64,000 nt of DNA. Source: Candidatus Cloacimonadales bacterium (GTDB lineage: Bacteria; Cloacimonadota; Cloacimonadia; Cloacimonadales; JAFGVF01). A program made the translations under genes and the position numbers. Position 1 is the first letter of the stretch. Every line of letters starts with the position of its first letter. The notes beneath the pieces were generated by a model, which did not search any database, was not told where the DNA came from, and saw only the letters and a program-made list of their open reading frames with translations. Where the stretch lies: positions 1,888,001-1,952,000 of the forward strand of contig CAXXJV010000001.1 in assembly GCA_963663475.2 (NCBI GenBank), in the 5' to 3' direction. Shown here piece after piece: positions 34,296-60,842 of the stretch.

Positions 34296-34317
34296 TATCA
34301 TAAATAAAAAAATATAA

Positions 34318-35601: not shown

Positions 35602-35614
35602 AAGGAAAAACTCC

Positions 35615-37141
35615 TTACTCTGACTCTGGATTTTCCTGATCGTATTCTGGGAATCTCTCTAAACAGCCAGCTAAGGCATCAGGACCATCTACATAACCAT
35701 CTGGATAGGTTAAATACTGGTTTATAAGAGTTGGAGTATCCTGACCATCAGGGAATTGTACTTTACCTGTTTCAATGGTTGTATCAGTTCTCTCAATTCT
35801 AAGATTCTTATTCTTGTCATTGTTGATTCTTCTGATTCTGTGTGATATAGGATGGCGATTGTTATCTCTACACCATAAATCAAAGTCAGCTAATATTCTA
35901 TGTTGTCCAAAGTTAGTCTCTATTGCAGATCTAAATCGGACTCCATACTTCCTGGATAGCTCAGAGTAGGCATCATAGTAGTAACTAAAGAACTTGCTGT
36001 TCTCAGTCTGCCTAATCCAGACATGGATAACATAAAATTTATTGCCATCATAACCTATGGAGATAATAGCCTTGTAGCATCCTTTTTCTCCCCAGGCTGG
36101 ATCAGCATACATCCAGACTCTTTTAAATCTTTTGGGAAGAGTAGTATATTTGATGAACCAGTGGAACTTAAACATATTTCCTTCAATTACTGGTCTGCCT
36201 AAAAACTCTCTTTGATATCCTGTTAAACCAAACTTCTTCTTTAGTTTAGGCAGTTCTTCAGTCGGATATTGCTTTTCCCAGACACTATTTCCATCTTGAT
36301 TTTCAAGTGGGAACCTTAAAAGCCTTTTTTCTAAAGCATAAAGATGTTGAACTGTATCTGGATTAAACTCATTGGTTTCTAACTTTAACTCATCTATGAT
36401 GTCTTGTTGAAATTGACAGATAGCATAATTAGGATGCACTAGATTACCAAGCCAGATAATCTTACCATCACTAGCAGGATCTAAAGCTCCTCCAATCTCT
36501 TGGATAATCTTATCCATCTTCTTTTTACCAATAGATTGATTACCAATGTTTTCTTCTTTATCAATATCATCACAGATAACAAGTCCTGGTCGAGTTGATG
36601 TTCTGGGGTTGATAGAGCCTCTAAAAGATTGTTTAATACCTCTAGCTCTGATTCTGCATTTATTCTGAAGATAAAAATCAGATTCATCTCTATCAACAGG
36701 CATAATTCCATCAAAATCAAGTTGCAGTCTTTTATTCTGAGTTAACTCATTGTAAGTAAAGGCTGTTCTCTCTTCTGCTAAATCTGCATCAGCTGCAGTG
36801 TGAATAATATATCTCTCACCCTTAATGATTTTCCAGATAGGGTAGACAACTCCCATAAGAACGGTCTTGCCGAGTCCTCTAAAGCCTGTAATAGATGTTA
36901 CTCCATTATACTTCTCAGTAATCTCAAACATTTCCTTGTGAGCATCAGCAAATTCAAGCTTGAAGATATGAGGAAAATAACTTACACAAAAATAAGAGAA
37001 GGCTGACCAGCCATCACTGGTAGCCTTCTTTATTCTTTGCTTCTGTTTATTAGGTGTATCATTTTGGAAGGGCTTTACACTGGAGGTTTTAGAAGCAATG
37101 TCCGAAAAGTTCTTATAGTCTTTTTGAGTTATTCTAACCAC
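35615..37141 (-). CDS. terL: terminase large subunit
   Basis: Walker A GFRGLGKT, Walker B LVICDDID, nuclease YADPA and DGPDAL. Confidence 0.88.
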   Translation of the reverse strand: MVRITQKDYKNFSDIASKTSSVKPFQNDTPNKQKQRIKKATSDGWSAFSYFCVSYFPHIFKLEFADAHKEMFEITEKYNGVTSITGFRGLGKTVLMGVVYPIWKIIKGERYIIHTAADADLAEERTAFTYNELTQNKRLQLDFDGIMPVDRDESDFYLQNKCRIRARGIKQSFRGSINPRTSTRPGLVICDDIDKEENIGNQSIGKKKMDKIIQEIGGALDPASDGKIIWLGNLVHPNYAICQFQQDIIDELKLETNEFNPDTVQHLYALEKRLLRFPLENQDGNSVWEKQYPTEELPKLKKKFGLTGYQREFLGRPVIEGNMFKFHWFIKYTTLPKRFKRVWMYADPAWGEKGCYKAIISIGYDGNKFYVIHVWIRQTENSKFFSYYYDAYSELSRKYGVRFRSAIETNFGQHRILADFDLWCRDNNRHPISHRIRRINNDKNKNLRIERTDTTIETGKVQFPDGQDTPTLINQYLTYPDGYVDGPDALAGCLERFPEYDQENPESE

Positions 37142-37595
37142 TGCTTGCCCTTTTTCTAAAGTATTCTACTATACCAGTTTCTCCTAAAATCTCTTTTTGG
37201 ATTGCTCTGGCTATTTCGTCATTATTTGAGCTTAAGAAGAAGTCTATTAACCAATCTAAGAACTTCTTCATATGTTCAATGAAGTCCTTGGTTGGCTCGA
37301 AGTCTATCTTATACTGTCTAAGTAATGATACCAAAGATTGAAGAGCAGTGTCTTGTGGAGCTCTTGCATACTCTCTAAGAGCTTTAATTAAAGCCTTCTT
37401 AAGTGCTATCTTAATTTCATCTTCAAGAGTTGCAATTTGATCATACTCAGTTTCCCAGTTGTCTTTCTTGATCCAGTTTCTAACTGTCTTTTCGGCAACA
37501 TCATAAATCTTAGCAAGAGCCACTGCATTAGTTTCTCCTTTAAGATATAGTTTCTTAGCTGATTGTCGTTTGATTTTATATTCTCTTGAATTCAT
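37134..37595 (-). CDS. putative terminase small subunit (DUF1804-like HTH)
   Basis: AKKLYL.G...LA..YDVAEKTVRNW...W; directly upstream of terL. Confidence 0.7.
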   Translation of the reverse strand: MNSREYKIKRQSAKKLYLKGETNAVALAKIYDVAEKTVRNWIKKDNWETEYDQIATLEDEIKIALKKALIKALREYARAPQDTALQSLVSLLRQYKIDFEPTKDFIEHMKKFLDWLIDFFLSSNNDEIARAIQKEILGETGIVEYFRKRASSG

Positions 37596-39415: not shown

Positions 39416-40129
39416 CTATATTGTGCCTAGATGCTCAGGTTTTATATGTGTTAGATCTTGTGACTCAGCAAGGTTTTCTAAGGAGTATAAAGACTTAATA
39501 AATTTCCTAATGTTACCCTTGGTCTTCCTGGCTATGAATTGAATAACAGTGTCATCAACTTTTACCTCACATACCTCTTTACATAGGAGGATTAAATCAT
39601 CTATTTCTAAAGGTTTAAATTGGCAGAAGAAGTTGCATCTATCAAAATAATGAGCATCAGCAGATAAGAGACTCTCTTTAGCATCTGACATTCCTACAAG
39701 AACTACTATTGATAGTGTTTGATCAACAATATCACGAATACTGCCTAAAATCTTTTTATTCTTAAAGGCATAATCTATCTCATCTATTACTATGACGGTA
39801 TTCTCAAAGTTACTAAGGATATCTACACAACGTTGGAAAATATCATTAGCTGTTCCTCTAACACCAATTTTTGGCATACCGAAGTGATAATAAATACGCT
39901 CTAATAATCTACCAGCAAAGCTCTTAGCTGTCATAGTAGCTTCGAGTCTAAAGTAGATATAATCATTTTGGATAGCTGATTGACGGGCAAATCTACTTTT
40001 ACCAAGTCCTGGAGGTCCATAGATAAGTCCTAAACCAACCATTTCAGTTTTAGGTCTTTTAATCAAATAATCAAATAAATCGTAGGCTCTAATTACATTC
40101 TTTGTTTTTACTAAGGTATATTCTCGCAT
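39416..40129 (-). CDS. MuB-like AAA+ transposition ATPase
   Basis: Walker A GPPGLGKS, Walker B VIVIDEID, R.I.D, VVLVGM; directly after the transposase. Confidence 0.88.
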   Translation of the reverse strand: MREYTLVKTKNVIRAYDLFDYLIKRPKTEMVGLGLIYGPPGLGKSRFARQSAIQNDYIYFRLEATMTAKSFAGRLLERIYYHFGMPKIGVRGTANDIFQRCVDILSNFENTVIVIDEIDYAFKNKKILGSIRDIVDQTLSIVVLVGMSDAKESLLSADAHYFDRCNFFCQFKPLEIDDLILLCKEVCEVKVDDTVIQFIARKTKGNIRKFIKSLYSLENLAESQDLTHIKPEHLGTI

Positions 40130-45016: not shown

Positions 45017-45094
45017 TATAACCTCCTTTAATATTTGATGTATTTAACAACTAGTTAAATTTTTGTCAAGATATAAAAGTTATATAAGGAAATG

Positions 45095-45411
45095 ATCGAG
45101 ATCTCGTTCGTTGTCTCAAATCAAGAATTTAAAACCGATATCTCACGTGAGACAGCGAGATATCGGTTGTTTTTTGAATCCTAAACCCACAACTAGCTAC
45201 TAACATAAAGACATACAATAGATTAGTAGCATAGCAAATTCCCCAAACAACCTGTAAAGCTAGCAGAGAAGTTGTAAAAAATACCTGCAAATGTAGTTAA
45301 AATGGAAATTTTGAGACATCGATTGAGACGGCGTGTAAGTGGCGAATAAATAACACTTTATACAAGTTAACTAGCGATGTCTCACATGGAAAACTTGGGT
45401 GTCACTTTTTA
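45095..45411 (+). repeat. Mu-like right end, copy 1
   Basis: Several TGAGAC/GTCTCA boxes; ends CTCACATGGAAAACTTGGGTGTCACTTTTTA; homologous to 50103-50404 and 60523-60841. Confidence 0.9.
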
Positions 45412-46240
45412 TTGGAAATTCATCTCCTGAGAGGATAAGATTCTGGTCATAGATTCCTAAGTCTTCCTTCTCATCAACAGTTGAGTAGATAGGCTGTATA
45501 AAGGCTATATCCTTATCTGTTTCATCATTCAAATCACCAACTGGTTCAATATTAAGAGGATAGCTAGTATCAATATTATTCTCCACAATAATCATTTCAA
45601 ATGTTCCTCCTAACATCACTCCCAAACCCCTGGTAGATGATTCTCGCTGGAGGATAAATCCCATATCATCACATCCGTCGCCATTTACGTCACCCAGACA
45701 TGAAGTAAACCATTCTCTGTCACTATAATATCCTGGACCTACCAGATAACCGTATTCATAATCATAATCAGTGAATTCAATTTCTGCATCAGGTCCACCG
45801 TAGTAGAAACGATAATAGGAATAGTCAGGGGCAGGAGAATCAAAAAGTAGATATGCACATATAGCAAGATCATCATAACCATCACCATTTCCATCTAGCT
45901 CAAGTAGATAGTCAGGGTGTGCATTTAAAACACCATTTTTTTGTTCTAATACTTGAATTAGGAGTTCCATATCCAAGTCATATTTATATTCCATTACATA
46001 TCAATATCTTTGTATAGTACTATCTTGAATAGAGTATATATCATGTAGTTTATTAATATTATATGTTTGCGATAAATTGTTGAACCATTGTTTAGTTGTG
46101 TTTATCGAATCACTATAGACATTATTTACCAATATTTCATCATCATTACTAAACACGATAGCTCTTTCTCTTACATCTTCAAAAGCATTTATACTTAATA
46201 TTAACAATACACAAATAATTATTAGAAATTGTTTTTTCAT
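45412..46240 (-). pseudogene. three-part chimeric pseudogene (secreted protease-propeptide-like N-terminus + FG-GAP fragment + phage gene fragment)
   Basis: 46240-45897 signal peptide and ...AHPDY with in-frame TGA at 46001-46003; 45522-45896 similar to 48337-48711; 45412-45521 similar to 19611-19720. Confidence 0.8.
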
Positions 46241-46250
46241 CTTCTTAACC

Positions 46251-47231
46251 TCACTTAACTACTATTTTTCTTGTTAGATTTTTATATGATTTGCCATCTG
46301 TTATTTTACTTTTTACTAGATAAACACCTGCTGAAACAGTTTTTGGCAATTTAATTTCTACGTTTGATGATTTACTTCCTGAAAGTTGCTTAGAGAATAA
46401 TCTTTGTCCTCTAAGATTAAAGACTTCTATATTTTCAATATATTGCCCCTCATTTGCTTTAACTGATATATCGGATACTGTTGGGTTCGGATAACAAGTG
46501 AATTCCAAGTTTGTTGTTTCACAATCGTGATTATCATTTTCAACTGGATTTATGAATTTAAAGATCAATCTTGGACCTAAATTATTCCCTAGTTCAAAAG
46601 ATGTTTGATAACTCATAGTATCTTCACAACCATCAAAATCTCCTATTGTATCAAAATAGAACATCAATTTAAAGCTATCCTCTTCATACAAGTATCTAGA
46701 CTTTTGGTAAGATGTAGTAATATCTACCTCTTTCCAACCTGGTTCAATATTTGCATCTGCATGAGATAAATAACCTACTTCTCTCATTTCCTCTGGAAAG
46801 AAAGAAGCATGCAGATCTGAAAAGCCATAATCTACAACAGCTATTTTTAATGGTAACTCTTGTCCATAAAATGTTGGATATTCATTAATCATATTATTAC
46901 CGATTGCTGTCCCTTGGTACATCTTTAATGTTACTGATTCTAGGATAAGATCTTCTGGAAGCTCTATAAAAGGGTACTCCTGATACCACCTATATGTAGA
47001 AGATTCATCACTAAAACTTGAGGTACAATCGCCAATACTTCGTTCTGGATTTTGATAGTTATGTAATAATATATACTCGTCATCGATATACTCACCCTGA
47101 AAATAGGTAACTTTATAGATTATCCTATCATAATCTGGATGAAGTAATTGCTCAACTTCAGTTATATTATTCCCAAATAATAGAATGTAAAACAAACTAC
47201 TAAACAAAATTAAAATATTCCTTTTGTACAT
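46251..47231 (-). CDS. secreted protein with T9SS-type CTD
   Basis: Signal peptide; SVTLKMY, GWKEVDIT, PRLIF (DNRLRE-like fold, tentative); CYPNP...VFNLRGQ...AGVYL. Confidence 0.8.
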   Translation of the reverse strand: MYKRNILILFSSLFYILLFGNNITEVEQLLHPDYDRIIYKVTYFQGEYIDDEYILLHNYQNPERSIGDCTSSFSDESSTYRWYQEYPFIELPEDLILESVTLKMYQGTAIGNNMINEYPTFYGQELPLKIAVVDYGFSDLHASFFPEEMREVGYLSHADANIEPGWKEVDITTSYQKSRYLYEEDSFKLMFYFDTIGDFDGCEDTMSYQTSFELGNNLGPRLIFKFINPVENDNHDCETTNLEFTCYPNPTVSDISVKANEGQYIENIEVFNLRGQRLFSKQLSGSKSSNVEIKLPKTVSAGVYLVKSKITDGKSYKNLTRKIVVK

Positions 47232-47336
47232 TTTTTTATTACTCCTTTTTTGGTATTTTATTTAGCTCCTAGTTTTGTTGTAACTAATTAAATCCTTAAT
47301 ATACAAGGATTACTATAACTGAGATGTTTTTTCATT

Positions 47337-49022
47337 TTAAAACTCCTTGTTCTTCTCCCTGTGATTCGGGAGATGGTTAAAATATTTAACAATAAATTTC
47401 GAAGTTGCCAAACGCTTGTTATTAATTTTGATAGTAGCGATATATAAGCCTGATGCTAATGATTCTAACTTAATAGCATCACTAGAGTTTTTGATATTTG
47501 AAGGGTTAAGTTTTCTCTCATGAACTTTCTGTCCTTTGAGATTATAGACGGAAACCATCGCGTTTTCTATATTCTTGGGTAAATGACCCTCAAGCTTTAG
47601 ATTTATCTTAATATTTTTACTGGAAACTGGGTTCGGATAGATGATTAAATTAGTGCTTGCTTGAGGAAATACATCGTTATCCTCATTACTTACGCTAGTA
47701 TCAGTCAGATTAGAATTACCGGCATAAATTGTTACATAACCCGGTGTAGCATAACCTCCCCAATCATCTGGAGCTGAAATAGCAATATCATCATAGCCAT
47801 CATTATTATAGTCTCCAACATTTACATTTAATCCAAAATATCCTGCAAACTCGGGATATATTGGACATGTTAGTTGTAAATCATAGATGCCGTTAGGATT
47901 TTCTCCACCCAACCATATAGCTGCTGTCCCATCCCATAAACCATAGGACGAATTACCTCCAACAAAATCACTATATCCATCTCCATTAAAATCACCGTGT
48001 TTTATCCATCGCCCAAAACCACCAGAACCCCTGATGAAAGTTAAATACGGAGGGTTACACTGAATTGGATATAGTGTCGAGTTTTCAAAACTATTTCTCC
48101 AAAGTGCTAACCCAAAATTATCAGAATAGTAATTTTCGGTAATTGGATAAAGAAAGTCAGGAAATCCATCTCCATTCATATCACCAACTGTTATCGCTCC
48201 ATTAAAATTATAAGTTTGTTCATAATAGCAGATAATTTCATACTCTGTTAGTGATAATGTAGAGTCTCCATAATATATTTTGGTGAAATCTTCATTAGAA
48301 TAATTTCGATAGCCTACAGCAAAATCAGCATAATTATCATCATTCAAATCACCAACTGGTTCAATATTAAGAGGATAGCTAGTATCAATATTATTCTCCA
48401 CAATAATCATTTCAAATGTTCCACCCAACATAATTCCTAAAGCTCTGGACATTGAATCTCGCGAAAGTATAAATCCCATATCATCACATCCGTCGCCATT
48501 TACGTCACCCAGACAGGAAGTAAACCACTCTCTGTCACTATAATATCCTGGACCTACCAGATAACCGTATTCATAATCATAATCAGTGAAATCTAGTTCT
48601 GCACCAGGTCCACCGTAGTAGAAGCGATAAAAATGAAAATCAGGATTGTTGAGACCAAACAAAATTACTCCCTCTATTGCTAAATCTTCATAACCATCTC
48701 CATTGACATCTCCACAAGAAAATACCCCTAAACTTACATTATAATCAGTCAAAGTTGTTATTTGGTTCGGCTCATTATTATACCCAAAATTTTCTCCTCC
48801 CCAAAAAAGATGAATTTCTCCTTGGTTTCCCTCTTCCATTGCCAAAACAAACAAATCATCAACTCCATTAGCATTAAAATCTAGGGTTGCCATCCCTTTA
48901 CCATATTCACTATTTCCCCAGGGTCCTTCAAAAGTATTCATTATCTCCATATAATTTTGGGCAAAGAGAGAAAGAGTGAAGAGAAGCATTACTGTAATAA
49001 GGCAATATTTTAACAATTTCAT
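47337..49022 (-). CDS. secreted FG-GAP (integrin-alpha-like) repeat protein with T9SS-type CTD
   Basis: Multiple GD(V/L/M/F/Y)NxDG..D repeats; IYPNP...VYNLKGQ...SGLY...KFIVK, with a short read-through tail. Confidence 0.88.
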   Translation of the reverse strand: MKLLKYCLITVMLLFTLSLFAQNYMEIMNTFEGPWGNSEYGKGMATLDFNANGVDDLFVLAMEEGNQGEIHLFWGGENFGYNNEPNQITTLTDYNVSLGVFSCGDVNGDGYEDLAIEGVILFGLNNPDFHFYRFYYGGPGAELDFTDYDYEYGYLVGPGYYSDREWFTSCLGDVNGDGCDDMGFILSRDSMSRALGIMLGGTFEMIIVENNIDTSYPLNIEPVGDLNDDNYADFAVGYRNYSNEDFTKIYYGDSTLSLTEYEIICYYEQTYNFNGAITVGDMNGDGFPDFLYPITENYYSDNFGLALWRNSFENSTLYPIQCNPPYLTFIRGSGGFGRWIKHGDFNGDGYSDFVGGNSSYGLWDGTAAIWLGGENPNGIYDLQLTCPIYPEFAGYFGLNVNVGDYNNDGYDDIAISAPDDWGGYATPGYVTIYAGNSNLTDTSVSNEDNDVFPQASTNLIIYPNPVSSKNIKINLKLEGHLPKNIENAMVSVYNLKGQKVHERKLNPSNIKNSSDAIKLESLASGLYIATIKINNKRLATSKFIVKYFNHLPNHREKNKEF

Positions 49023-49419
49023 AGTTCCTCCTATGAAGTTAACAAATTAGCATATCATTGTATAATCCAAAAATATGGTTTATGAGTTTAGATGTCAATA
49101 TTTATTTCAAACTTTTTATAAAATTGTATTTATCCCATTGTAAAGATGTTTTATTCTAAAAGTGTTTAGAAAGTGTATCGTTATTGAGGATTATTAGATG
49201 TGAATATGCCCTCACAAGACAGGATTAAAAAAGCAACTAGTTAGGGTTAAGTTTCATATAAAGTTTATTAGTAGTTAAGTGCAGACCATGCTGTCCACTA
49301 TCCGAAAGAAGAGGCATAAATCCCCTTTTAATATAGTCTAAACCTTAGAAGGATTGTTTTTTTTGATATTACGCCTTGAACTATTTTAGAGAAAGCCTAA
49401 ATAAATAATTTGGTAGTCT

Positions 49420-50091
49420 TTGAGTCTTCTACAACATCATCTTTTAATGAACCACCTTAAACTATCATAAAGTAATCGACCAGCAGTCCATTCTTGAAGT
49501 TGTTGAAATCAAAGGTCTTAATCTGTTCTAAAATCTCTATATTAATAGCCACAGGTAAGCATGAGACACCCCAAGCAGTTGACTTATGAGTTGGATTTTT
49601 AAAGTGAATCACATCATTACTTGAGAAGAATCTCTTTTCTCCATTTTTATAATGAAGGAAATCAGGTTTGAAGAATCCAAACTCATCATAGTTTTCTATT
49701 AATTGAACCTCTGTTGGTAGTAGTCTTTCCAAGCCAACCCACTCTCCTGATGCACTTCTCATTTTGATGATAAAGCCATTACCACATGCTAGATAGTATT
49801 TAAGCAGTTCTCCAAGAGTTGAAAGGATATCATCATTTCCAGGATACTGAGCTGATGCTAACCAATTTTTAAGAGAGGTATTTTTTACTTCAAGTTGCAT
49901 AAAACATGTGTTTACTTTAGAAGCAATACAACCTGAATGGTACTCATCTTTATCGATAAGTTTAAGTAGTTTGAAAATAGAGTAGGGAGCTGGTATAATT
50001 CTTTCTTTCTCATAAGATTTGGATAATTTTCTTCTACCTTGCCACTTATAAGAATCTAAGTTAACAGGCTCAGGCGAGTAGTTCTTTTTAA
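49420..50091 (-). pseudogene. phage portal protein fragment, copy 2
   Basis: Colinear with 28238-28811; 5' end replaced by the right-end repeat; nonsense TAA at 49457-49459 (V*GG). Confidence 0.85.
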
Positions 50092-50102
50092 ATAGTTTTA
50101 AT

Positions 50103-50404
50103 ATCGAGATCTCGATCGCTGTCTCAAATCAACATATGCAAACCGATATCTCAGCTGAGACGGTGAGATATCGGTAGTTTTTTGAAGCATAAACCCACAA
50201 CTAGCTACTAAGATAAAGACTTACAGGAGATTAGTAGCTTAGCAAACTCTCCAAACATCCTTTAAAACTAGCAGAGAAATTGTAAAAAATACCTGCATAA
50301 GCTGTTAAATAGGAAATTTTGAGACATCGTTGAGACAGCGTGTAAATAACTAATAAATAGCACCGATATACATCTCACAGGGAAAACTTGGGTGTCACTT
50401 TTTA
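50103..50404 (+). repeat. Mu-like right end, copy 2
   Basis: Same boxes and hairpins; ends GGAAAACTTGGGTGTCACTTTTTA. Confidence 0.9.
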
Positions 50405-50884
50405 GACATCATAATTCTCTTAATTTTACAATTTAGTATCCTCAACATTTCTTAAACTTCTTAAATATAAAAAGATAATACTAAAAACATAGCCACACTG
50501 CAAGTGAGGACAAATTTGCTATAGAATTACTTATCATTTGCACTATATTAAAGAAAATTTTTATTAATTTCAACACCATAATTCTTCAAATAATTGATAG
50601 ATTCCAAAGAAACTTTTTCCTGAGTTTCCCAATATCACCTCGCATCCCTACTGTAATATTTTTTTTAAATTTAAAAAAATTAATTCTGCACGATTTAGAA
50701 AGCCACTATTTATAACACTATCCATAATTCTGTAAGACAATTTATTAGGGTACTATTTTTCCTCATATATGAATAAATTTATTAAAGAAATTTAATTTCC
50801 TATTAATCTTCATTTAATATAGGGTGGGTATATTCCATTTGTGAAGTTTAGTTTTCGTGTAAAAAAACAAAAAGGTGGAATAAT

Positions 50885-51829
50885 ATGAATACTAATATCA
50901 AGAAAGCAAAGCAAGCTATAATTAGAGGAATCTGTTTTGATAAACTTATAACTGTTTTACTCATCATTCTATTTTTATCTAGTAACTTATCTGCTCAGAA
51001 TCTGTTAAAATCTATTCTCAACACGAAATCAGACAAGTCGGAGAGCGAAGAAGGAACTAAGATAGGATTCAATCCTGAGAATTTTATTAATCCAATACTA
51101 AGCACAAATCCCTATCACCCGCTAAAACCAGGACTACAATGGGTTCGTGGTGGAACTACTGAGGTAGGTTCCAGAGTAGTTCCTCATGAGATCATTACTA
51201 CAATGACAGATGTAATCAGAATAATCCAGGGGGTACCAACTGTTGCAATGCTGGATGAATCTACAGATTCAGGAGAGATGTCTCAAGTTAGTATTGATTA
51301 TCTAGCCTTGGATAAAGATGGCAATGTGTGGATTTTAGGCGGATATTCTGAAGAATATGAAGGGGGTTTATACACAAACCTGGATGATGCCTGGCTTGGA
51401 GAAGGTAAAGGATCTGAGGTTGGTATTCTGATGCCTTCTGAGGTTACCATGGAAACACCTCGTTGGTTTGTAGGAAAATCTCCTGGTGAAGCACCTACTG
51501 TAGCCGAACCAGTTGAGATAGGCATGACCCAATGTGTTGAATTCGACTGTTTTGATGATGTTTGGGTAATTCGAGAAGGTGAAGTAGGAGCTATCGATAA
51601 CGAGTTCAAATATTACGCTCCAGGTGTGGGTGTTATTTATAATGTACCCCAAGACGAAAGCTTGCATAAAGATTTCTTTGAATTATTGAACTTCGTTGAA
51701 CTTAGTCCAGAAGGATTGGCAAAGGCTAGTCAAACTGTTTTGAAACTAGAAGAACATGCTCGTAAGAAAACAGCACGAAGAGTTTTCGGTCCAGAGCCTG
51801 TTTCTAAGAGGGCTGAGAAAAATGAATAA
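50885..51829 (+). CDS. exported acidic hypothetical protein
   Basis: Signal-like N-terminus; NPYHPLKPG, DYLALDKDGNVW..G, KYYAPGVG motifs; first gene of the ABC operon. Confidence 0.7.
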   Translation: MNTNIKKAKQAIIRGICFDKLITVLLIILFLSSNLSAQNLLKSILNTKSDKSESEEGTKIGFNPENFINPILSTNPYHPLKPGLQWVRGGTTEVGSRVVPHEIITTMTDVIRIIQGVPTVAMLDESTDSGEMSQVSIDYLALDKDGNVWILGGYSEEYEGGLYTNLDDAWLGEGKGSEVGILMPSEVTMETPRWFVGKSPGEAPTVAEPVEIGMTQCVEFDCFDDVWVIREGEVGAIDNEFKYYAPGVGVIYNVPQDESLHKDFFELLNFVELSPEGLAKASQTVLKLEEHARKKTARRVFGPEPVSKRAEKNE

Positions 51830-52493
51830 CACTGTTGTAAGTCTGACAAGTGTCTCCCATTCGTATAAAACAGATAATGGAGTTATTCCAGTGCTTGAAA
51901 ATGTGAATCTTACCATTCGACACGGAGAAAAAGTAAGCTTGGTTGGGCCTTCTGGATGTGGAAAATCAACTCTTCTGTCTCTAATTGCTGGCCTTATTAA
52001 ACCTTTTGAAGGAGATATCTGTATCGCTGGTGATTTAATGAGTAAACTTAAGGATAAAGACCGTGCCCAAATTCGAGCTAAAAAAATAGGGATTGCTCTC
52101 CAATCCGACAATCTTATACCCTTTCTTACTTCACTCGAAAATATCGAATTAGTTTTATCATATGGTAGATATGGGAATAAGCATGAAATAAGGAAACAAG
52201 CGGAACACCTGCTTAACAAGTTCGGATTATCTCACCGTTCTCAGCACCTTCCAAGACAATTATCTGGTGGTGAAGCACAACGCGTTGCTTTAGCAGCATC
52301 CGTAGCAAACAGCCCCTTGTTATTGTTGGCAGATGAATTCGGGGCTCAACTGGATGCAGGGACAGCTAAGCAGGTTATAAGTGAAATTTTACAAGAAGAT
52401 TTTGCGGTATTGTTTGTAACTCACAATTTAGAACAAGCTCAATTAACTCCAAGCAGATATGAAATCAAAAATGGAAGGGTGGAATTGATATGA
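51822..52493 (+). CDS. ABC ATPase (LolD/MacB-like)
   Basis: GPSGCGKS, LSGGE, LLADE, VTH; likely start ATG 51822. Confidence 0.9.
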   Translation: MNNTVVSLTSVSHSYKTDNGVIPVLENVNLTIRHGEKVSLVGPSGCGKSTLLSLIAGLIKPFEGDICIAGDLMSKLKDKDRAQIRAKKIGIALQSDNLIPFLTSLENIELVLSYGRYGNKHEIRKQAEHLLNKFGLSHRSQHLPRQLSGGEAQRVALAASVANSPLLLLADEFGAQLDAGTAKQVISEILQEDFAVLFVTHNLEQAQLTPSRYEIKNGRVELI

Positions 52494-53188
52494 ATAGAAA
52501 GAAATCAATCTCAGCTAAGAATGTAGTTGTTGAATATAAAACATCAGAAGGTACTATTCGAGCTTTGGAATGCAAAGACTTGTATGTACAAAGCACTTCA
52601 AGCGTTGCAGTGATGGGATCGAGTGGCTGTGGAAAATCGACTCTTCTAGGTTTGTTGGCTGGTATAGCAGTACCTACACATGGTAGCATTAGAATTGGTG
52701 ATGTAGAGTTATCTTCTCTTAGCGAAAAACAAAGAACAAGTTTTAGGAGAGATAATCTCGGAATGGTTTATCAAGCAGATAATCTATTACCCTTTTTAAC
52801 AGTTGAAGAGAATATTAGATTAAGCCTTGGTATTTCAGAATCAAATACCAAAAACACAAGTAATCGTTTACATGATCTTCTTGATCAACTGGGCTTATCA
52901 GGACTTGAAAAACGACTTCCAGATCAGATGTCTGGTGGACAAAGGCAAAGAGTGGCAATTGCCAGGGCTGTATTTCATGAACCAAGAATTATACTTGCAG
53001 ATGAACCAACAGGGGCACTTGACGAACTAAATGCACAAAAGGTTATTAATATTCTCATCAGGTTACAGCATGAGATTGGGGCTACACTTGTTGTTGTAAC
53101 TCATGATCCCAAAATAGCTAAACTGCTGGATACAACTATATATATTAAATCACCTGAAAGAAAAATAAAAGAGGACCTCTATGTTTAA
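52490..53188 (+). CDS. ABC ATPase (LolD/MacB-like)
   Basis: GSSGCGKS, MSGGQ, LADEPTGALD, VTHD. Confidence 0.92.
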   Translation: MNRKKSISAKNVVVEYKTSEGTIRALECKDLYVQSTSSVAVMGSSGCGKSTLLGLLAGIAVPTHGSIRIGDVELSSLSEKQRTSFRRDNLGMVYQADNLLPFLTVEENIRLSLGISESNTKNTSNRLHDLLDQLGLSGLEKRLPDQMSGGQRQRVAIARAVFHEPRIILADEPTGALDELNAQKVINILIRLQHEIGATLVVVTHDPKIAKLLDTTIYIKSPERKIKEDLYV

Positions 53189-56100
53189 AAGATATGTACT
53201 ATTAGACCTGATAAGAAATCCGAGAAGAACTCTTTCTACATTAACAGGAGTTATGCTAGGTGTTGGCCTTCTTTGCGGTGTGCTGTTTTTTGTAGATGGT
53301 CTTTCAACATCAATGACACAAAGATCTGTAGCACCTTTAGCTATCGATATGCAAAGAATCATCAGTAAACGTATTGGCAGCTTTGTATCTCTCACTCAAA
53401 CTATCGCTTATGTGGACAGAGTTAATACACCAGATATAGTTGAAATAAAGCTCAAACTTAAAAATGAAGGTAATTTTACTGCAAATGACGTAACTGTTCG
53501 TTCTCGTCTGAAAAAGGAACTTATGTTTATTAAGGGATCAGCAGAAATAGATGGAAAACCCTTAGATAAATTTGAGGATAATCCTTTCGCTCATGGTTTG
53601 GGAAGAACTGGATATAATCTTGGTTCAGTAAAACCTGGAGAAGCTCATTTTCTTAGCTACAGAGCAAAAGTTGAAAATAATGCTGAAATTGAGAAAAATC
53701 TAATTACCACTTTCTCCACCCGAGAATCTTTAATGCCGGTAAAGGCAAATAAACCTCAACAAGTACCACTCTCAGAACTATCGGATATGATCAGTAAGAT
53801 TGAAGGAGTGAAACTTGCTGAGCAGCTTTCTTATGCAGATCTTGGATATAATAAGATTACCTTCAAAAATAACTCTTCACCTGGAATGACCAGGATATTT
53901 GGGCTGAATAACAGTTATGCAAAGCACGATGAAACAATTTCAATAACAAGTGGAGAACTTATCGATAATGGAGCAGTGCTAAGTATTGAAGCTTCAAGAA
54001 TTATCAAAGCATCAATTGGGGACTCAATTATAATAAGTCTTCCAGACAGCTCTTTTCATAAAATTATGGTTACTGGGATTGCTGATTTAAGTCGTTCTCG
54101 AGCTCTTTTTAACAGCCGTCGAGGTGCAGACCTTGAGGAATTCTTATATATTCCAAGCTCTTTGATCATAACTTCAAAATACTTCGAAGAAATTGTTTTT
54201 CCAGCTTATCAGTCTGCAGCAAGTGAAAACGAAGATCGTTTGAAAAATCCTCCTGTTCGTGAAATAGATATCTGGCTTGATCATGCTCTTTTAAATGGTT
54301 CTCCTGAAATTGCATTAACTGAAACCAAACAAATAAACAGTAGAATAAAAGAAGTAGCTGCTCATCAAGATTATGTTCTTGATAACATCTCCAATACTCT
54401 GGAAGTAGCAGTTGCAGATGCACGTACTGCAAAAAAACTTTTCTTCTTCTTAGGAATTCCAGGAGGATTTCTAGCAGCAATGCTTGCAGCTTATGCGGCT
54501 AATGTTCTAGCGTCAGCCCAGCGTCGCGAACAAGCAACTCTCAGAGTTAGAGGTGCTTCAGGATCACATTTATTTAAGATGCTGGCATTAAGAACTTTCC
54601 TTATCACAACTATTGGAACAATTTTTGGATTATTATTAGGTTTTGTTATTTCAAGTGCCATCCTGGGATATGACTCAATGCTGAATGCTGGTTTCTTAAG
54701 GCTTTCTGTTTCAGGATTGCTGGGAACAATGGGAGGCTTTCTAGCAACTGGAATTTCATTGTATTTGACGGGGCATGTTTCTATTGTCAGACAAATTAAT
54801 GAAGAACGAGCTAGGTTATCTGAACGAACTCCTTATTGGCGCAGGTTAAATCTGGATATATTCAGTTTTGCAATTCTTGTAATAGGAACAGCAATTGCTT
54901 TATTAACGAACTCCTTTGAAGGTTCTAGTGGATCTGTCTATTTTGGCAAAGGTGTAGATCTGAATCTTATTATGTTGGTTTTTCCTGTCATGTTGTGGTT
55001 CTCAGGAAGCTATCTTTTTGCTCGCTTTTTAGTAATTTTTCTATCTAATCTTAGAAGAAAACAAAGAATTGGTATCCTAAAACCATGGCCAGGAGTTTTT
55101 TGGCTTAGCATAAACCGCAGACCCTGGCCCATTGCATATGGTTCCATAATCATTTCTCTAATTGTTGCTCTTTCGGTTAGCTTATCTGGATTCACTGCTT
55201 CATACAACAGAGCAAAAAAGAATGATGCTCTTTATGCTGCAGGATCAGACATCCGAATTATTCCTGATCCAACATCAATGAGTAAAATGCAGATATCCGA
55301 CACACATAAACTGAAAGTTGATGGTATAAAAGAAGTGACTCCTGTTTACTACAGTGTTCAGAATGTCATTATCAGAAGCAACCGAACATCAGATCCTGCA
55401 AATATGCTGGCTGTAGATCCTGATTCTTTTGGTAAAGTTGCACCATTGTATGATCTTGATTTCAACGACATTACTGCTGAACAATCTCTTAGCATTTTAA
55501 AAAACGAACAAGAATCTGTTTTTCTGAGTGATGATATGGCCGATTTCCTGCAGGTTGAAGTTGGAGATACTTTACATGTTCTTCTTGAGAGAGGTTCAAA
55601 CAAGCAAACTGAGATAATGCAAATCATTAAAGGTACCTTTAAGCGACTTCCAGGTTGTCCTGATGGTGCACATGCATTCATGTCAATTCATGTATATTCG
55701 GAAAAAATTCCAGACAAAGCTCCTGATTTCTTTCTCGCATCAGTGCAAAACGATCAGGTTGAGAATTTTGCAAGTATTGAGAAAGATTTAGCAAATTCAG
55801 TTGGTAAGTTTTTCGAATATAGATTGGAAAGCAAGTATACTGTTCTTTCTAAAGATCAATCAAGTCTCGCAGCATTAAACATTGCCGGTCTGGTTAAATT
55901 AGACTCCATCTTTGCCTTTGTTATGGCAATAGTAACGATTGGTATATTTGTCTTTGGTCTACTTTTCCAAAGAAGAAGAGAATACATCACCTTGAAAGCA
56001 CAAGGGCTCAAACCGAACATCATCAGGTCATTAATAGCTGCAGAGGCTAGCAGCGTTGCTTTAGGCGGTAGCATTTCAGGTATTCTTGTAGGTATTACAA

Positions 56101-56282
56101 TGGGCTTTTACTTTGTAAAAGTTTTACAACCTTTATTCGTTCATGTTCCAGTATATGTAATATCTCTACAATCTATTTTTCTTCCAATTTCACTTGTTTT
56201 TATTGGAACTGTAATCTCTTCATATACTGGTTCAAGACAAATAAACTCACTCAATCCAATGGAACTATTACGAGATGAATAA
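53181..56282 (+). CDS. double FtsX/MacB-family ABC permease
   Basis: Two RRE..TL...G repeats with TM clusters and large periplasmic domains; ends P.ELLR.E. Confidence 0.88.
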   Translation: MFKRYVLLDLIRNPRRTLSTLTGVMLGVGLLCGVLFFVDGLSTSMTQRSVAPLAIDMQRIISKRIGSFVSLTQTIAYVDRVNTPDIVEIKLKLKNEGNFTANDVTVRSRLKKELMFIKGSAEIDGKPLDKFEDNPFAHGLGRTGYNLGSVKPGEAHFLSYRAKVENNAEIEKNLITTFSTRESLMPVKANKPQQVPLSELSDMISKIEGVKLAEQLSYADLGYNKITFKNNSSPGMTRIFGLNNSYAKHDETISITSGELIDNGAVLSIEASRIIKASIGDSIIISLPDSSFHKIMVTGIADLSRSRALFNSRRGADLEEFLYIPSSLIITSKYFEEIVFPAYQSAASENEDRLKNPPVREIDIWLDHALLNGSPEIALTETKQINSRIKEVAAHQDYVLDNISNTLEVAVADARTAKKLFFFLGIPGGFLAAMLAAYAANVLASAQRREQATLRVRGASGSHLFKMLALRTFLITTIGTIFGLLLGFVISSAILGYDSMLNAGFLRLSVSGLLGTMGGFLATGISLYLTGHVSIVRQINEERARLSERTPYWRRLNLDIFSFAILVIGTAIALLTNSFEGSSGSVYFGKGVDLNLIMLVFPVMLWFSGSYLFARFLVIFLSNLRRKQRIGILKPWPGVFWLSINRRPWPIAYGSIIISLIVALSVSLSGFTASYNRAKKNDALYAAGSDIRIIPDPTSMSKMQISDTHKLKVDGIKEVTPVYYSVQNVIIRSNRTSDPANMLAVDPDSFGKVAPLYDLDFNDITAEQSLSILKNEQESVFLSDDMADFLQVEVGDTLHVLLERGSNKQTEIMQIIKGTFKRLPGCPDGAHAFMSIHVYSEKIPDKAPDFFLASVQNDQVENFASIEKDLANSVGKFFEYRLESKYTVLSKDQSSLAALNIAGLVKLDSIFAFVMAIVTIGIFVFGLLFQRRREYITLKAQGLKPNIIRSLIAAEASSVALGGSISGILVGITMGFYFVKVLQPLFVHVPVYVISLQSIFLPISLVFIGTVISSYTGSRQINSLNPMELLRDE

Positions 56283-56321
56283 AAAAATATTTATGGAAAA
56301 CTAAATAAATTAGGAGGATAG

Positions 56322-57020
56322 ATGAAAAATCTAAAAAAAATATTGTTGATGGAAGTTGTTGAAAAACATATCATTATACTAGTGATTATCGTTTTAGCTT
56401 TCGGTTCGCTACAGGCTCAAATGAAACCAGAAATCCTTTTGAACATTGAAACTTCTGGGAATGAGATTCTAAGTGATGATTACGAATATGGCATTTCACC
56501 CCAGTTAATTTTTGAATGGGAATCAATTAATCTTTTAGCTGAGACAAAATGGTATTTACCTTTATATCCTGAATCTAATCTCGGAGAAGTAGAGCTTAAT
56601 GTGGAACGTGTTTTGCATTCCAAATTATGGTGGTTAGATTTTAAGCTGGGTAATACAAATTTGTGGATCTTTGAAGATAGTGAACTTGAAGGAGTCGCTT
56701 TTTTCAATCCAATAATGTATATATCCAATATAGAATTTGAATTAGGCTTTGAAACTCAGTATATGCCAGATTTAGCCGTCGAGTTTGCTCCTTCTATCGT
56801 TTATGAATTTGCCCTACCTCGTGGAATAGCAGAAATTGGAGTAGGTCAGACTATTGTTCTATATGATGAATTTGCAAGAGGGGAAACAGAATTTCCTATT
56901 ACATACGAATTTGATGCTGGAGAATATTCAACCCTAGGATTTGAATTTACTCCATTAATCACTGAAGATAACGAGTTTAATCTTAATATCATGCTCAAAG
57001 CTGAAATATCTTTTGATTAA
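56322..57020 (+). CDS. acidic exported protein, possible outer-membrane beta-barrel
   Basis: Signal peptide, alternating beta pattern, penultimate Phe. Confidence 0.5.
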   Translation: MKNLKKILLMEVVEKHIIILVIIVLAFGSLQAQMKPEILLNIETSGNEILSDDYEYGISPQLIFEWESINLLAETKWYLPLYPESNLGEVELNVERVLHSKLWWLDFKLGNTNLWIFEDSELEGVAFFNPIMYISNIEFELGFETQYMPDLAVEFAPSIVYEFALPRGIAEIGVGQTIVLYDEFARGETEFPITYEFDAGEYSTLGFEFTPLITEDNEFNLNIMLKAEISFD

Positions 57021-57117
57021 AAGTTCGGACTAATAAAGCTTTAATGATAACATAAGATAGAACTATATGAAGTGGATCAAGAACTATAGAAAAAATTAAA
57101 AAAAGAATGGAGGAGAC

Positions 57118-57870
57118 ATGTGTTTACAAAAAGAGCTTGAAAAACAAGGCAACTGGCTTTTTACTTACAGAAGTTATTTGCCGATATTAATATTAGCTGT
57201 AGGTATTGTCCTATATTTTAGAAATTATATTCACCTTGAGATGTTTAGTAGTAAAATTGTGATATATAAGTCATTTTATGCATACTTATGCCTCTTCCTT
57301 AGTCTTTCAGGTGTTTTAGTTAGAGTATATACAGTAGGCTATACACCCAAGGGTACTTCTGGTAGAAACACAAAAAAACAAGTAGCACAAAGCTTGAATA
57401 TGACAGGGATATATTCAGTGGTTCGTCACCCTTTATATTTGGGTAATTTCTTAATCTACCTTGGTATTTGTTTATTAATTGGACATTTATGGTTTGTCAT
57501 TATATTTTGTTTGCTGTTTTGGATTTACTACGAAAGGATCATGTATGCCGAGGAGCAGTTTTTATTTCGTAAATTCGGAGAGGATTTTACGAATTGGTCT
57601 GCAGAAATTCCAGCTTTTATCCCAAGATTTAAATCATTTGTAAAACCAGCACAATCATTTAGCTGGAAAAAGGTCCTAAGAAAAGAAGCTGATGGTATTT
57701 TCGCCTTATCCTGTATTTTTTTCTTTTTCAATATTGGAAGAGAGATAATTGAGAATAACGGTCATTTTAACTTGATTCTTGGATTTATCTTTCTATTTAT
57801 TACTATAGGATACATTTTTGCCAAGTATTTAAAGAAAAAGACCCGTTTTCTTAATGAAGTGGAGAAATAG
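57118..57870 (+). CDS. ICMT/PEMT-family membrane methyltransferase (LmtA lipid A phosphate methyltransferase-like)
   Basis: GNWLF.YRSYLP, TSGRNT..Q.A..LN.TG.YS.VRHPLYLGN, YERI..AEE.FL..KFG. Confidence 0.8.
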   Translation: MCLQKELEKQGNWLFTYRSYLPILILAVGIVLYFRNYIHLEMFSSKIVIYKSFYAYLCLFLSLSGVLVRVYTVGYTPKGTSGRNTKKQVAQSLNMTGIYSVVRHPLYLGNFLIYLGICLLIGHLWFVIIFCLLFWIYYERIMYAEEQFLFRKFGEDFTNWSAEIPAFIPRFKSFVKPAQSFSWKKVLRKEADGIFALSCIFFFFNIGREIIENNGHFNLILGFIFLFITIGYIFAKYLKKKTRFLNEVEK

Positions 57871-57953
57871 CCCGTTATAATGATTGTAGAAGCTTAAATT
57901 CTACTTACCAAATTCGCTTGAAATATGTGTAATTTAGAGAGAGGAAGATTTAA

Positions 57954-58625
57954 ATGAGAATTTTATTGGTCGAGGATGATAAAAAAATTGCTGGTTTTAT
58001 TACCAAAGGTCTTCAGGAAGAAAACTATGCAGTAGATATTTTTCACAATGGAGAAGACGGTCTATATTGGGCTCTAGTAAATGAATATGACTTGATTATT
58101 TTAGATATAATGCTGCCTCAGATGAATGGTTTAGAAATCTGTCGGGAAATCAGACGCAATCAAAAAAACACACCAATTATTATTTTAACAGCAAAAGGGT
58201 CTATTGAAGATAAGGTTAAAGGCTTGAGGATTGGGGCAGATGATTACTTGAGTAAACCATTTTCATTTGATGAATTATTAGCTCGTATTCAAGCTTTGTT
58301 AAGAAGATCGCAGGAATATCAGTCTCAAATTTTAACAGCAGCAGATTTAGAACTTGATGTCGGCTCACGAAGAGTCTCCCGATCAGGGAAAGAGATAATC
58401 CTATCAGGTAGAGAGTATGGTCTCTTGGAATTTTTGATGAGGAATAAGAATAAAGTCGTAACTGAAACTCAGATAATTGAACATGTCTGGGATATGAATT
58501 CTGAGTTGTTTACGAATGTCGTAAATGTATATATCCACCATCTACGAAAAAAAATAGATGAGGAAAGCTCTCAGAAGTTAATCTATACGCTGCGCGGTCG
58601 AGGATATATTTTAAAGGATGAATAA
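57954..58625 (+). CDS. OmpR-family response regulator (CusR/CzcR-like)
   Basis: LLVEDD, LDIMLP, GADDYLSKPF, wHTH NVVNVYIHHLRKKID. Confidence 0.93.
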   Translation: MRILLVEDDKKIAGFITKGLQEENYAVDIFHNGEDGLYWALVNEYDLIILDIMLPQMNGLEICREIRRNQKNTPIIILTAKGSIEDKVKGLRIGADDYLSKPFSFDELLARIQALLRRSQEYQSQILTAADLELDVGSRRVSRSGKEIILSGREYGLLEFLMRNKNKVVTETQIIEHVWDMNSELFTNVVNVYIHHLRKKIDEESSQKLIYTLRGRGYILKDE

Positions 58626-58631
58626 ACCACT

Positions 58632-60095
58632 ATGATTAATCATTCAATTCGTAATCGTTTAACAATATATTTCGCTTCAATAGTTGCAATAATTCTTCTT
58701 CTGTTTGATCTTCTAATCATATTGAGTTTTAGGGACAATCTATTAGATAATATTGAATCTTCACTATTAAGCAGTTGTTCGGTTATTACAGGAGAGATTT
58801 TTAAGCAGGATATATCAGGGAAACTCATTGAAGAAGATAGTGAATATGAAGATGAAATATCTAAGATCTCCGAGCTTTTCCCTGTAGAAATAGCAGAATT
58901 AATAGAATCAATGGGGCATTTCGCACAGCTACTCGATGTTCAGAATCCTGCGAAACCTGTTATCATTGCCAGAGCACATTTGAATGAAAATATTAATATA
59001 CCATATAACCCAGAGTTGGTGCAGAAAATTATAGGAAGCAAATCATCCAAGGATAAATATTTGTTCAAAAAATCACAGGAATTAATGCTGGTCAACCTCT
59101 ACATTTTGGATCATCTGGGAAATAAATTTGTATTACAAATTGCAGAAACCACCGTTAATTTTAAAAATGATTTAAAGTGGATTTTTACAAGTTTATTGAT
59201 AGCTTCACCACTTTTTTTACTCATCCTTTCCATATTTGGGTATTTTATGATAAAAACTGCCTTCAAGCCTGTCACCAATATTGTGGAAGATGTAAATAAG
59301 ATTACAGCCAAAGATCTTAGTTTACGGATAAAATCAATGAGCGGAAAAGATGAGATTGGGAAATTAATTGATACTTTCAATAATCTTATTGAACGCTTAG
59401 AAAGATCATTCAATTTAACAAAACAGTTTTCTATTGATGTATCCCACGAGCTCAAAACACCCTTAACCGTTTTAAGAGGAGAGATAGAGGTGATCCTGCG
59501 TCACTCTAGGTCGAAGGAAGAATATGTAAGAACATTAAATAGCCTAGTAGAAGAGGTGATCAAATTGCAGGCAATCATTGATAATCTGCTTCTTCTGGCA
59601 AACCTGGATGCATCCCGCAGACTGCCAGAATTTGAAGATGTAGATCTGAATGAACTTATATTAGAAACATTTGAAGATCTGCATTGGCTTGCTACCCAGA
59701 AAAATCAGAATATTGAGATTAGAGAAATACCTTCTATCAGCATTCATGGAGATAAGACGCTTCTCATCAGGCTATTCAGCAATATTCTGGAAAATGCAAT
59801 TAAATATTCTCCCAGAAACGGAAAAATCAGGATTTTCTGTAATATATCAAAAGACTCCATGGAAATCAATGTGCAAGATAGCGGACCCGGAATAAGCAAA
59901 GAATATCATACCAAAATTTTTGAGAGGTTTTTCCGTATCAATGATTTATATGAGCCCACCAAATCCAAAAGCTCTGGCTTAGGGCTAGCTTTAGCAAAGA
60001 AGATAGCTGACCTGCATAATATTACCATCAAACTGAAAAATTCATCTCCTCAGGGCTGCATTTTTTCTTTATCAGCTCCTTTTAAATATGATTAA
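58632..60095 (+). CDS. HAMP sensor histidine kinase (CusS/CzcS-like)
   Basis: SHELKTPL, NILENAIKY, DSGPGI, FERFFR, GLGL. Confidence 0.93.
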   Translation: MINHSIRNRLTIYFASIVAIILLLFDLLIILSFRDNLLDNIESSLLSSCSVITGEIFKQDISGKLIEEDSEYEDEISKISELFPVEIAELIESMGHFAQLLDVQNPAKPVIIARAHLNENINIPYNPELVQKIIGSKSSKDKYLFKKSQELMLVNLYILDHLGNKFVLQIAETTVNFKNDLKWIFTSLLIASPLFLLILSIFGYFMIKTAFKPVTNIVEDVNKITAKDLSLRIKSMSGKDEIGKLIDTFNNLIERLERSFNLTKQFSIDVSHELKTPLTVLRGEIEVILRHSRSKEEYVRTLNSLVEEVIKLQAIIDNLLLLANLDASRRLPEFEDVDLNELILETFEDLHWLATQKNQNIEIREIPSISIHGDKTLLIRLFSNILENAIKYSPRNGKIRIFCNISKDSMEINVQDSGPGISKEYHTKIFERFFRINDLYEPTKSKSSGLGLALAKKIADLHNITIKLKNSSPQGCIFSLSAPFKYD

Positions 60096-60299
60096 GAAAC
60101 TTTAATATAAATATATGATGAAATTTTCATTTTAACGCTTTTATAACAATAATATAGCTTTGCTATCAAATTATACTAAACATAATATTAATAATATATC
60201 TGTTATTGTTTATAGAATTTTAGAAATAAGTATTTTAATAGTAAGTGTTTGAGTAGAATAGGGACAGTATAACCATGTCTCTATTTGAAATGTAAAAAG

Positions 60300-60445
60300 T
60301 TGGCATACCCCATTTTTTTATGAAAAAATGATCCGTATTTGTAGCTTGTTATGATATTCCCTCTTGTGTGGTAAATTTTATTCATTTTAGTGTTATTAAA
60401 TATAGTTTTATAATTCTACTCAGTTTTAACAGGATTTTTATTTAT
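60300..60445 (-). mobile_element. isolated 3' end of the same IS4-like family as 31361-32910
   Basis: Reverse complement aligns with ~32770-32910 and ends TCATAAAAAAATGGGGTATGCCAA. Confidence 0.7.
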
Positions 60446-60522
60446 AGTCGTCTCTTTCTCAACTTACACTTCCTTAGCTTGGAAGAGAGAAAAAAAGATA
60501 GAGACATTTAGTATAGCAAATT

Positions 60523-60841
60523 ACCAAGGTCTCGCTCCCTGCTCAGATCAACAATCTAAAACCGATGTCTCACTTGAGACGGCGAGATCTCGGTGGCTTT
60601 TTTCGAATCCCAAACCAACAACTAGCTACTAAGATAAAGACTTACAGGAGATTAGTAGCTTAGCAAACTCTCCAAACATCCTTTAAAACTAGCAGAGAAA
60701 TTGTAAAAAAATACCTGCAAAAGCTGTTAAATAGGAAATTTTTAGACATCGGTTGAGACAGCGTGTAAATAACTAATAAATAGCACTTTATAAGAAGCTC
60801 CTATAGATATCTCACATGGAAAATTTGGCTGTCACTTTTTA
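60523..60841 (+). repeat. Mu-like right end, copy 3
   Basis: Central part nearly identical to copy 2; ends CTCACATGGAAAATTTGGCTGTCACTTTTTA. Confidence 0.9.
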
Positions 60842-60842
60842 A

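Follow-up and report, generated by a model that had tools for sequence, protein, structure and literature searches.

Can a short, phage-derived unit that lacks its own transposase still move, and how was it assembled? The question is raised by a stretch of 64,000 nucleotides (the window; G000:C1:1888001-1952000) from a Candidatus Cloacimonadales bacterium, whose genome (G000) comprises 3.3 Mb in 2 contigs. Three adjoining units of one Mu-like family lie there in a row (Table 1): unit 1, the parent element; unit 2, which carries genes for secreted-type proteins; and unit 3. The original prediction regarded unit 2 as a non-autonomous mini-element with different cargo in the same portal-to-distal-gene slot, mobilisable in trans by the MuA transposase and MuB ATPase of unit 1. 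We compared the locus with few, related genomes (four of one genus, one of a sister genus and one of another family). Sequence comparison confirms that unit 2 is a real, separately derived and non-autonomous one-ended relic of the family of unit 1. We consider it likely that this relic with secreted cargo was built by homologous recombination between sister relics and that it is immobile alone.

Unit 2 is a diverged relative of unit 1

Self-BLAST of the window aligned positions 49518-50094 with the unit 1 portal gene at 28238-28814 (88.9% identity over 577 bp, 64 mismatches, no gaps) and positions 45412-45521 with 19611-19720 (92.7% over 110 bp). These matches reached bit scores of 163 and 753, against best scores of 28-39 in 20 shuffles of unit 2 (2-base blocks). 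Over 192 codons, the two portal copies differed at 14, 9 and 42 first, second and third codon positions, respectively (dS 0.46, dN 0.049, dN/dS 0.107). As this divergence is mainly synonymous, unit 2 is not a collapsed duplicate, in agreement with the original prediction, which had described 49518-50091 as a diverged portal copy and had proposed both the self-comparison and the dN/dS estimate. Its coordinates held throughout, including those of the distal-gene copy at 45412-45521.

The contents of unit 2 were also as predicted. An FG-GAP gene with a C-terminal domain (CTD) of secreted proteins, a second CTD gene and a chimeric secreted pseudogene were all found between the two matches. The portal stub adjoins the end repeat R2, and 45412-50404 contains no early gene, its own MuA and MuB being absent. 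The repeat, which had been called a right end, is real: a ~310-bp end occurs as three direct copies (R1, R2 and R3; window self-BLAST). The side was wrong, however, since all three are repressor-side ends and correspond by position to the c/left end of Mu.

Because unit 2 is adjacent to unit 1, in the same orientation, and shares three segments with it in the same order, it might be an in-place tandem duplicate that was eroded later by deletions. We consider this very improbable. The divergence is mostly synonymous, unit 2 retains 97 bp of portal sequence that unit 1 lacks, its junctions are common to other genomes and not to unit 1, and R2 is nearer to R3 and to ends in a relative (G003) than to R1. 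We reject tandem duplication on account of these junctions and of the additional portal sequence, unless it predates all sampled lineages.

An assembly artefact is more improbable still. The region is repeat-rich, and among contigs of four runs from other samples no contig spans the whole stretch. Against an artefact, the copies are 82-93% identical rather than identical, the genome is assembled in 2 contigs, and two junctions of unit 2 (b and z, described below) recur in independent records. Contigs from a second sample covered 45897-47505, 47877-49333 and 50334-56468 with 0 differences. On these grounds we reject this reading. Elsewhere the units are found apart, although absence from contigs is weak evidence: in X5 the R1 end differs at 36 positions over 2.4 kb and runs into other sequence, with pieces of the unit 2 cargo present and unit 3 nearly uncovered, and X11 covers unit 3 together with its right flank but has zero depth over 46170-49339. 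An X4 contig over the junction of R1 and unit 2 had 30 bases on its short side, one below our bridging rule.

Table 1. Features of the array and of unit 2 (window positions)
Feature	Position	Strand	Description
tmRNA (transfer-messenger RNA) gene	16454-16803	+	array starts ~1 kb downstream
Unit 1	17838-45411	-	repressor, MuA, MuB, terminase, MuF, portal broken at codon 212, cargo, distal genes
R1	45087-45411	-	repressor-side end of unit 1; terminus joined straight to unit 2 distal-gene fragment at 45412
Unit 2	45412-50404
In-frame three-part chimeric pseudogene	45412-46240	-	237-aa-family piece, FG-GAP piece, phage piece
326-aa secreted-type CTD gene	46251-47231	-	paralogue triplets C1:1099446-1102379 and C2:25253-28186 (30-32% aa)
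Leader and 5' end of 326-aa gene	47177-47324	-	relic in unit 1 (26859-27006, 87.9%) and in G008a (93%)
FG-GAP and Por_Secre_tail gene	47337-49022	-	561 aa; signal-peptide-like sequence and type IX secretion system (T9SS) type A CTD
Linker at junction z	49144-49420	-	non-phage; 96.8% over 186 columns, including the junction, to contig L137
Portal stub	49421-50094	-	codons ~19-243; start codon lost (codons 1-18 gone); premature TAA at 49457
Junction b (end-to-portal fusion)	50095-50102	-	base for base the same in G003:C1:2328151 and G006:C1:2266028
R2	50103-50404	-	repressor-side end, 303 bp; terminus TAAAAAGTGACA at 50404
Unit 3	50405-60841	.	ABC (ATP-binding cassette) transporter and two-component cargo, ending in R3 (60515-60841)

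Junctions and mosaic alleles point to recombination between relics

The portal stub of unit 2 extends 97 bp beyond the codon-212 break of unit 1, to 49421 (codon ~243). It is a mosaic of alleles like those of unit 1 and of G008a, a copy of unit 1 in another genus: successive 48-bp blocks at the 5' end differ from unit 1 at 2, 2, 4 and 5 positions, and mid-stub blocks differ from G008a at 6, 1, 4 and 3. R2 is likewise mosaic. Its outer ~240 bp are 100% identical to the end at G003:C1:2335318, which has the same flank and a different CTD gene inside, and its inner ~100 bp are 96-97% identical to the portal-fused end at G003:C1:2328476, which belongs to the lineage sharing junction b. Compared with R1 and R3, R2 carries a 14-bp deletion, and its terminal 18-bp site is the same as in R1.

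Cargo junctions at portal codons 212 (x), 83 (y) and ~243 (z) recur in other genomes. Behind the native portal start, x is found in unit 1, G008a and contig L138, y in G005, and z in contig L137; behind junction b, y is found in G003 and G006 (with other cargo) and z in unit 2. In L137 the linker that marks z follows a portal with native start and no nonsense codon; outside L137 no source of this linker was found. Because y and z each occur both behind the native start and behind b, we infer crossover within the stub, and a single tree of deletions is insufficient.

On the preferred reading, one old internal deletion would have fused the end to portal codon ~19 and founded the mini lineage, after which the portal stub and the ~310-bp end may have acted as homology boxes for cargo swapping. 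The unit 1 transposase would then have joined R1 into the distal gene of unit 2 at 45412, through nested insertion or adjacent deletion, and the far end of unit 2 would have been lost. Repeated joining would build the head-to-tail array R1-R2-R3. At present, unit 2 would move only by recombination, or when carried along by an intact far end paired with an outer repressor-side end.

Several points weigh against this scheme. No crossover or transposition was observed, everything being deduced from assembled genomes, which are few and related. Among 203 genomes there was no intact close relative that could donate portal alleles, and the nearest with a tape-measure gene reach at most 73% aa identity. 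L137 is a 2.2-kb contig ending 164 bp past junction z, its cargo unseen. Among five broken stubs, dN/dS was 0.08-0.19 in 10 of 10 pairs, a result in keeping with the scheme, but such low values could instead reflect selection acting on the truncated portal. Nested insertion and adjacent deletion are not separable, because the far-side duplication has been lost.

Unit 2 has one terminus and probably cannot jump by itself

The termini of Mu are TG...CA. Those of the present family differ, reading 5'-TA(A/T)AAAGTGACA, as fixed by target duplications in relatives. A 5-bp target duplication was found in four of the five full-size two-ended relatives, which measure 30.5-34.5 kb (G008a, G003d, G003e and G004b, but not G024). 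In G000, seven positions match the terminal motif (none in a reversed-pattern control), and none of them provides a far (L) terminus for units 1-3; the pattern had no match in viral contigs. No partner was found for the flank of R2 (GACAT) as a target duplication. Two matches, C1:1660748 and C1:1683572, were rejected as far ends, having a different subterminal sequence and lying 250 kb away, and C1:1968665 was rejected for units 1-2 as it lies right of R3. The far end of unit 1 begins at 17838, ~180 bp inside; both the terminus and the first two end repeats are missing from it, and it is cut by a relic, putatively (from its motif) of a REP-associated tyrosine transposase (RAYT) with its repetitive extragenic palindrome (REP). 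Without a second end, unit 2 probably cannot jump by itself.

These results bear directly on the proposal that unit 2 is a self-contained mini-element transposed in trans by the MuA and MuB of unit 1. Several observations speak for it: unit 1 has a full-length MuA whose DDE triad is invariant, as well as an intact MuB, R2 retains the terminal 18-bp site of R1, two-ended minis without transposase (3073, 4172 and 2866 bp) exist in relatives, and the b lineage occupies different loci in G000 and G003. The far terminus, however, is missing from both unit 2 and unit 1, and none of the three two-ended minis has a target duplication, compared with four of five full-size elements. Moreover, the flank of R2 is identical in G003, so no new R2 junction has formed since the copies split. 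We therefore regard mobilisation in trans as unlikely and as largely refuted for unit 2.

A slightly better, still improbable candidate is that units 1 and 2 (and 3) form one composite, in which the transposase pairs the far end with R2 or R3, skipping R1, and carries unit 2 as a passenger; the interval from 17838 to R2 (32.6 kb) would fit a headful started from R2. Positions 50178-60841 are 98.5% identical to G003:C1:2335092-2345756, whereas host DNA in the vicinity is 72-84% identical; the R3 terminus marks the exact point at which the flank changes. In addition, an array in G003 with one far end and four repressor-side ends in 20 kb has no transposase. The length would agree with that of the full-size relatives, and Mu packaging starts at the left end (PMC5977238). 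On the other hand, the G000 array has no far terminus today, the G003 array lacks a matching duplication, and what evidence there is relates to R3 and not to R2; the agreement in size could be fortuitous and the packaging site is putative.

Ends often abut sister elements

We examined 24 termini, of which 20 belong to the close clade (two represent the same junction and one was placed from a BLAST end). At seven of the 20 close-clade repressor-side termini, the flank within three bases is sister-element DNA in the same orientation; the flank of R1 is such DNA from base 1. The seven flanks fall at offsets of ~76, 140 and 388 bp from a far end, in a distal gene, in the interior of an end and in two repressor genes (one match being 40 bp). 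Of the other close-clade termini, one lies 92 bp from a far end, one lies in an insertion sequence (IS) relic, and the rest are in host DNA or unassigned. Repressor-side ends also occur twice each in G006 and G024, and G004b, with its 5-bp duplication, is nested 161 bp inside an older terminus. As a test of immunity, such flanks are limited: what genomes preserve are rare retained events, and adjacent deletion would produce identical junctions. A position weight matrix scan of repressor-side ends found only the terminal site reliable (background 0.23 matches per 340 bp), so binding sites remain putative.

The portal-to-distal slot recurs and often carries CTD genes

In intact relatives, the gene order is portal, protease/capsid, tube, tape measure and tail genes. 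The ten closest portal loci (units 1 and 2, G008a, G008b, G024, G005, the G003 and G006 minis, and contigs L137 and L138) all lack capsid, tape-measure and tail genes, although two of the ten are short contigs broken in the portal. Full virion genes are present in G003d, G003e and G004b. Among 15 more distant loci, a tape-measure match was found in 11, two ended at a contig edge and two had none, so distant members mostly keep intact late operons. The original prediction had named intact late operons elsewhere as evidence against a recurring cargo slot; they are thus a feature of most distant loci and of none of the ten closest. Portal searches elsewhere yielded two distant viral loci and two short metagenome contigs.

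The recurrence of junctions x, y and z bears out the slot itself. That the slot of unit 2 is the same as that of unit 1, with different cargo, held in part: the slot recurs, but the breakpoints differ (codon ~243 versus 212), and the match at 47177-47324 indicates that unit 1 retains a 5' relic of the same 326-aa gene, so the cargo is not wholly different. Besides an end, a repressor and an IS relic, a further relic in G000 (C1:2516457-2527622) contains FG-GAP-CTD and 1545-aa CTD genes and the remnant of a tail gene; its last cargo gene has a 3' flank that matches the one in unit 1.

The 561-aa and 326-aa proteins of unit 2 both scored above cut-off for TIGR04183, the T9SS type A tail, while the signal peptides of the cargo proteins were called by a crude hydrophobicity rule alone. 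Of the T9SS itself, SprA_N and PorV were sought, and both were above cut-off in G000. The 561-aa gene is 80.6% identical in nucleotides to a paralogue at C1:1136756-1138517 (dN/dS 0.25), and its stop codon was lost at the next junction, which added 15 aa after the CTD. In the chimera, ~110 N-terminal codons from a 237-aa secreted family, with a stop at 46001, are followed by an internal FG-GAP piece (45522-45815, 92% identical to 48337-48630) and then by 110 bp of an 80-aa distal phage gene.

With a hidden Markov model built from this genome, CTDs were detected in 158 of 2087 open reading frames of at least 150 aa (7.6%). By slot, they occurred in seven of 16 late-slot genes, five of 18 genes in the MuF slot (cargo partly shared) and two of 11 in array units, with slot boundaries drawn by hand and the duplicate cargos of G008a and G006 left out of the late-slot count. 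The late-slot excess gave a binomial p of 9e-5, which is overstated since CTD genes cluster. The predicted enrichment for CTD genes was therefore found, but the cargo also includes glycosyl enzymes and a formate channel (late slot), an ABC transporter and a two-component system. Beside the repressor, a further slot contains GmrSD, OLD, HNH and kinase genes, with CTD genes in none of ten. A promoter scan of the locus was uninformative (37 sites versus 31.3 +/- 5.3 in shuffles; no terminators).

Unit 1 and its copy in another genus

The MuA of unit 1 is a 675-aa protein matching PF09299, rve and phrog_310 (E 5.5e-86), with D277, D344 and E391 invariant across five sequences; its best PDB match is TnsB (7svw, E 3.7e-11). 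The neighbouring MuB-type AAA+ ATPase (39416-40129) matches AAA_22/TniB and phrog_296 (E 9.9e-28). The portal matches PF04860 and phrog_12 alone, and weakly.

G008a, which measures 33,044 bp, is a copy of unit 1 that shares its portal break and its cargo at ~81% identity; dN/dS was 0.06-0.26 in 17 of 17 genes compared. The lineage is not simply grounded, since this capsid-less element occurs with the same cargo in another genus at a different locus, where it is flanked by a clean 5-bp duplication.

In a comparison of 28159-37595 with G008:C1:2164378-2178165, the terminase, MuF, three small head-tail genes and the 236-aa truncated portal had dN/dS of 0.06-0.25, and both elements showing purifying selection on these head genes have no capsid gene. 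Either the genes are refreshed from intact phages, or they are still functional, e.g. in helper packaging or interference. Unit 1 also contains a divergent module, made up of a sigma-70 region-2 gene and a 65-aa secreted-type peptide gene, that precedes CTD gene clusters in many places (window 26939-28237; C1:1572397-1573593; G003:C1:3102003-3103436; L138); the sigma gene of unit 1 is broken.

Comparison with known systems

Like Mu and saltoviruses, the parent element has a repressor, a MuA-type DDE transposase, an AAA+ MuB and late genes, and like Mu it has repeated sites at both ends and 5-bp duplications, matching the 5-bp target spacing described for Mu (PMC7350765). It differs from Mu in its TA...TA termini, in the ten closest loci without a tape-measure gene and in ends that often abut sister copies. 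Mu avoids its own genome and flanks through cis and genome immunity (PMC7350765), and for Ab30 only 0.4% of insertions escaped it (PMC5977238). The repeated occurrence of ends in sister copies is at odds with target immunity as described in Mu. With its natural MuA/MuB pair and TA termini, the family lends itself to direct tests of immunity.

Mini-Mu elements are laboratory constructs complemented by helper MuA/MuB. Unit 2 resembles them in the internal deletion of early genes, the retained end and the non-phage cargo inside. Unlike them, it is natural and has one end, its cargo was apparently changed by recombination, and the natural two-ended minis lack duplications.

The plasticity regions and morons of Pseudomonas Mu-like phages offer a parallel, with variable genes at fixed positions between conserved phage genes and recombination as the proposed cause. 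Their open reading frames are mainly 34-100 codons and make up 6-10% of a viable genome (PMC4378225), whereas here secreted proteins of 0.3-1.5 kaa take the place of essential head and tail genes and persist in relics that are not viable. 'Grounded' defective prophages, described as hotspots of horizontal gene transfer, likewise combine decayed prophage DNA with acquired genes and many recombination events (PMC6379469); unlike these, the same capsid-less element and cargo occur elsewhere with a clean 5-bp duplication (G008a). The parts are thus known from Mu-like prophages, moron slots (PMC4378225) and grounded prophages (PMC6379469). In the literature searched, where most subscription papers were missing, natural nested mini-Mu arrays were not described, and we found no report that combines TA termini with lost tail genes, nested end arrays and shuffled T9SS cargo, nor any paper on Mu-like or transposable prophages of Cloacimonadota/Cloacimonetes.

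More tentatively, and with considerable doubt, a Mu-like lineage of Cloacimonadales may have evolved into a cargo transposon that has no tail and no effective target immunity. It would insert into or next to its own ends, often just downstream of tmRNA genes, and form integron-like cassette arrays whose T9SS genes are swapped through stub and end homology, while composites would cross species, possibly packaged by intact helper phages. Beyond this reading, the locus shows how a transposable phage can decay not into junk but into a modular gene-delivery scaffold, with fixed relics as recombination handles. The cargo consists mostly of envelope and secreted proteins, and 7.6% of the larger open reading frames in this lineage have a T9SS-type tail. 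Unit 2 alone is a modest result, a partly decayed and probably immobile cassette.

Surroundings of the array and other termini

R3 is joined into a 5'-truncated paralogue (60842-61846; 72.6% nucleotide identity) of a 441-aa gene at C1:596532-597857. To its right, C1:1968665-1969235 is a 0.57-kb relic with an intact far terminus and a partial repressor-side end, followed by a 491-aa transposase-like open reading frame. The block of RAYT relic and far end (17548-18166) recurs at C1:1968054 and C1:1981143 with 94-95% identity. The termini at C1:1660748 and 1683572 belong to a different subfamily; separated by 22.8 kb and with near-identical flanks, they enclose restriction-modification-like genes, and a terminus is present at the syntenic position in G004 and G006. 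Tandem repressor-side ends around single defence-like genes were found at G008:C1:2417278-2421839 and G024:C1:84875-89306. The genes enclosed include a 333-aa gene (twice) and OLD and HNH genes, the same array pattern at the other slot.

Elements of this clade lie directly downstream of the tmRNA gene in four genomes, one from another family (window 16454-17838; G004:C1:1843145-1844573; G003:C1:3074606-3084639; G024:C1:119484-119922). No targeting protein for this placement was identified; the position is possibly a target preference of the clade. The far end points towards the 3' side of the tmRNA gene and in G024 is 41 bp from a matching flank. In the window, a 155-bp tandem duplication directly follows the tmRNA gene (within 16821-17191), and a palindromic REP-like repeat of ~80 bp (14175-14255, in the region 14135-14278) has more than 100 matches in the genome.

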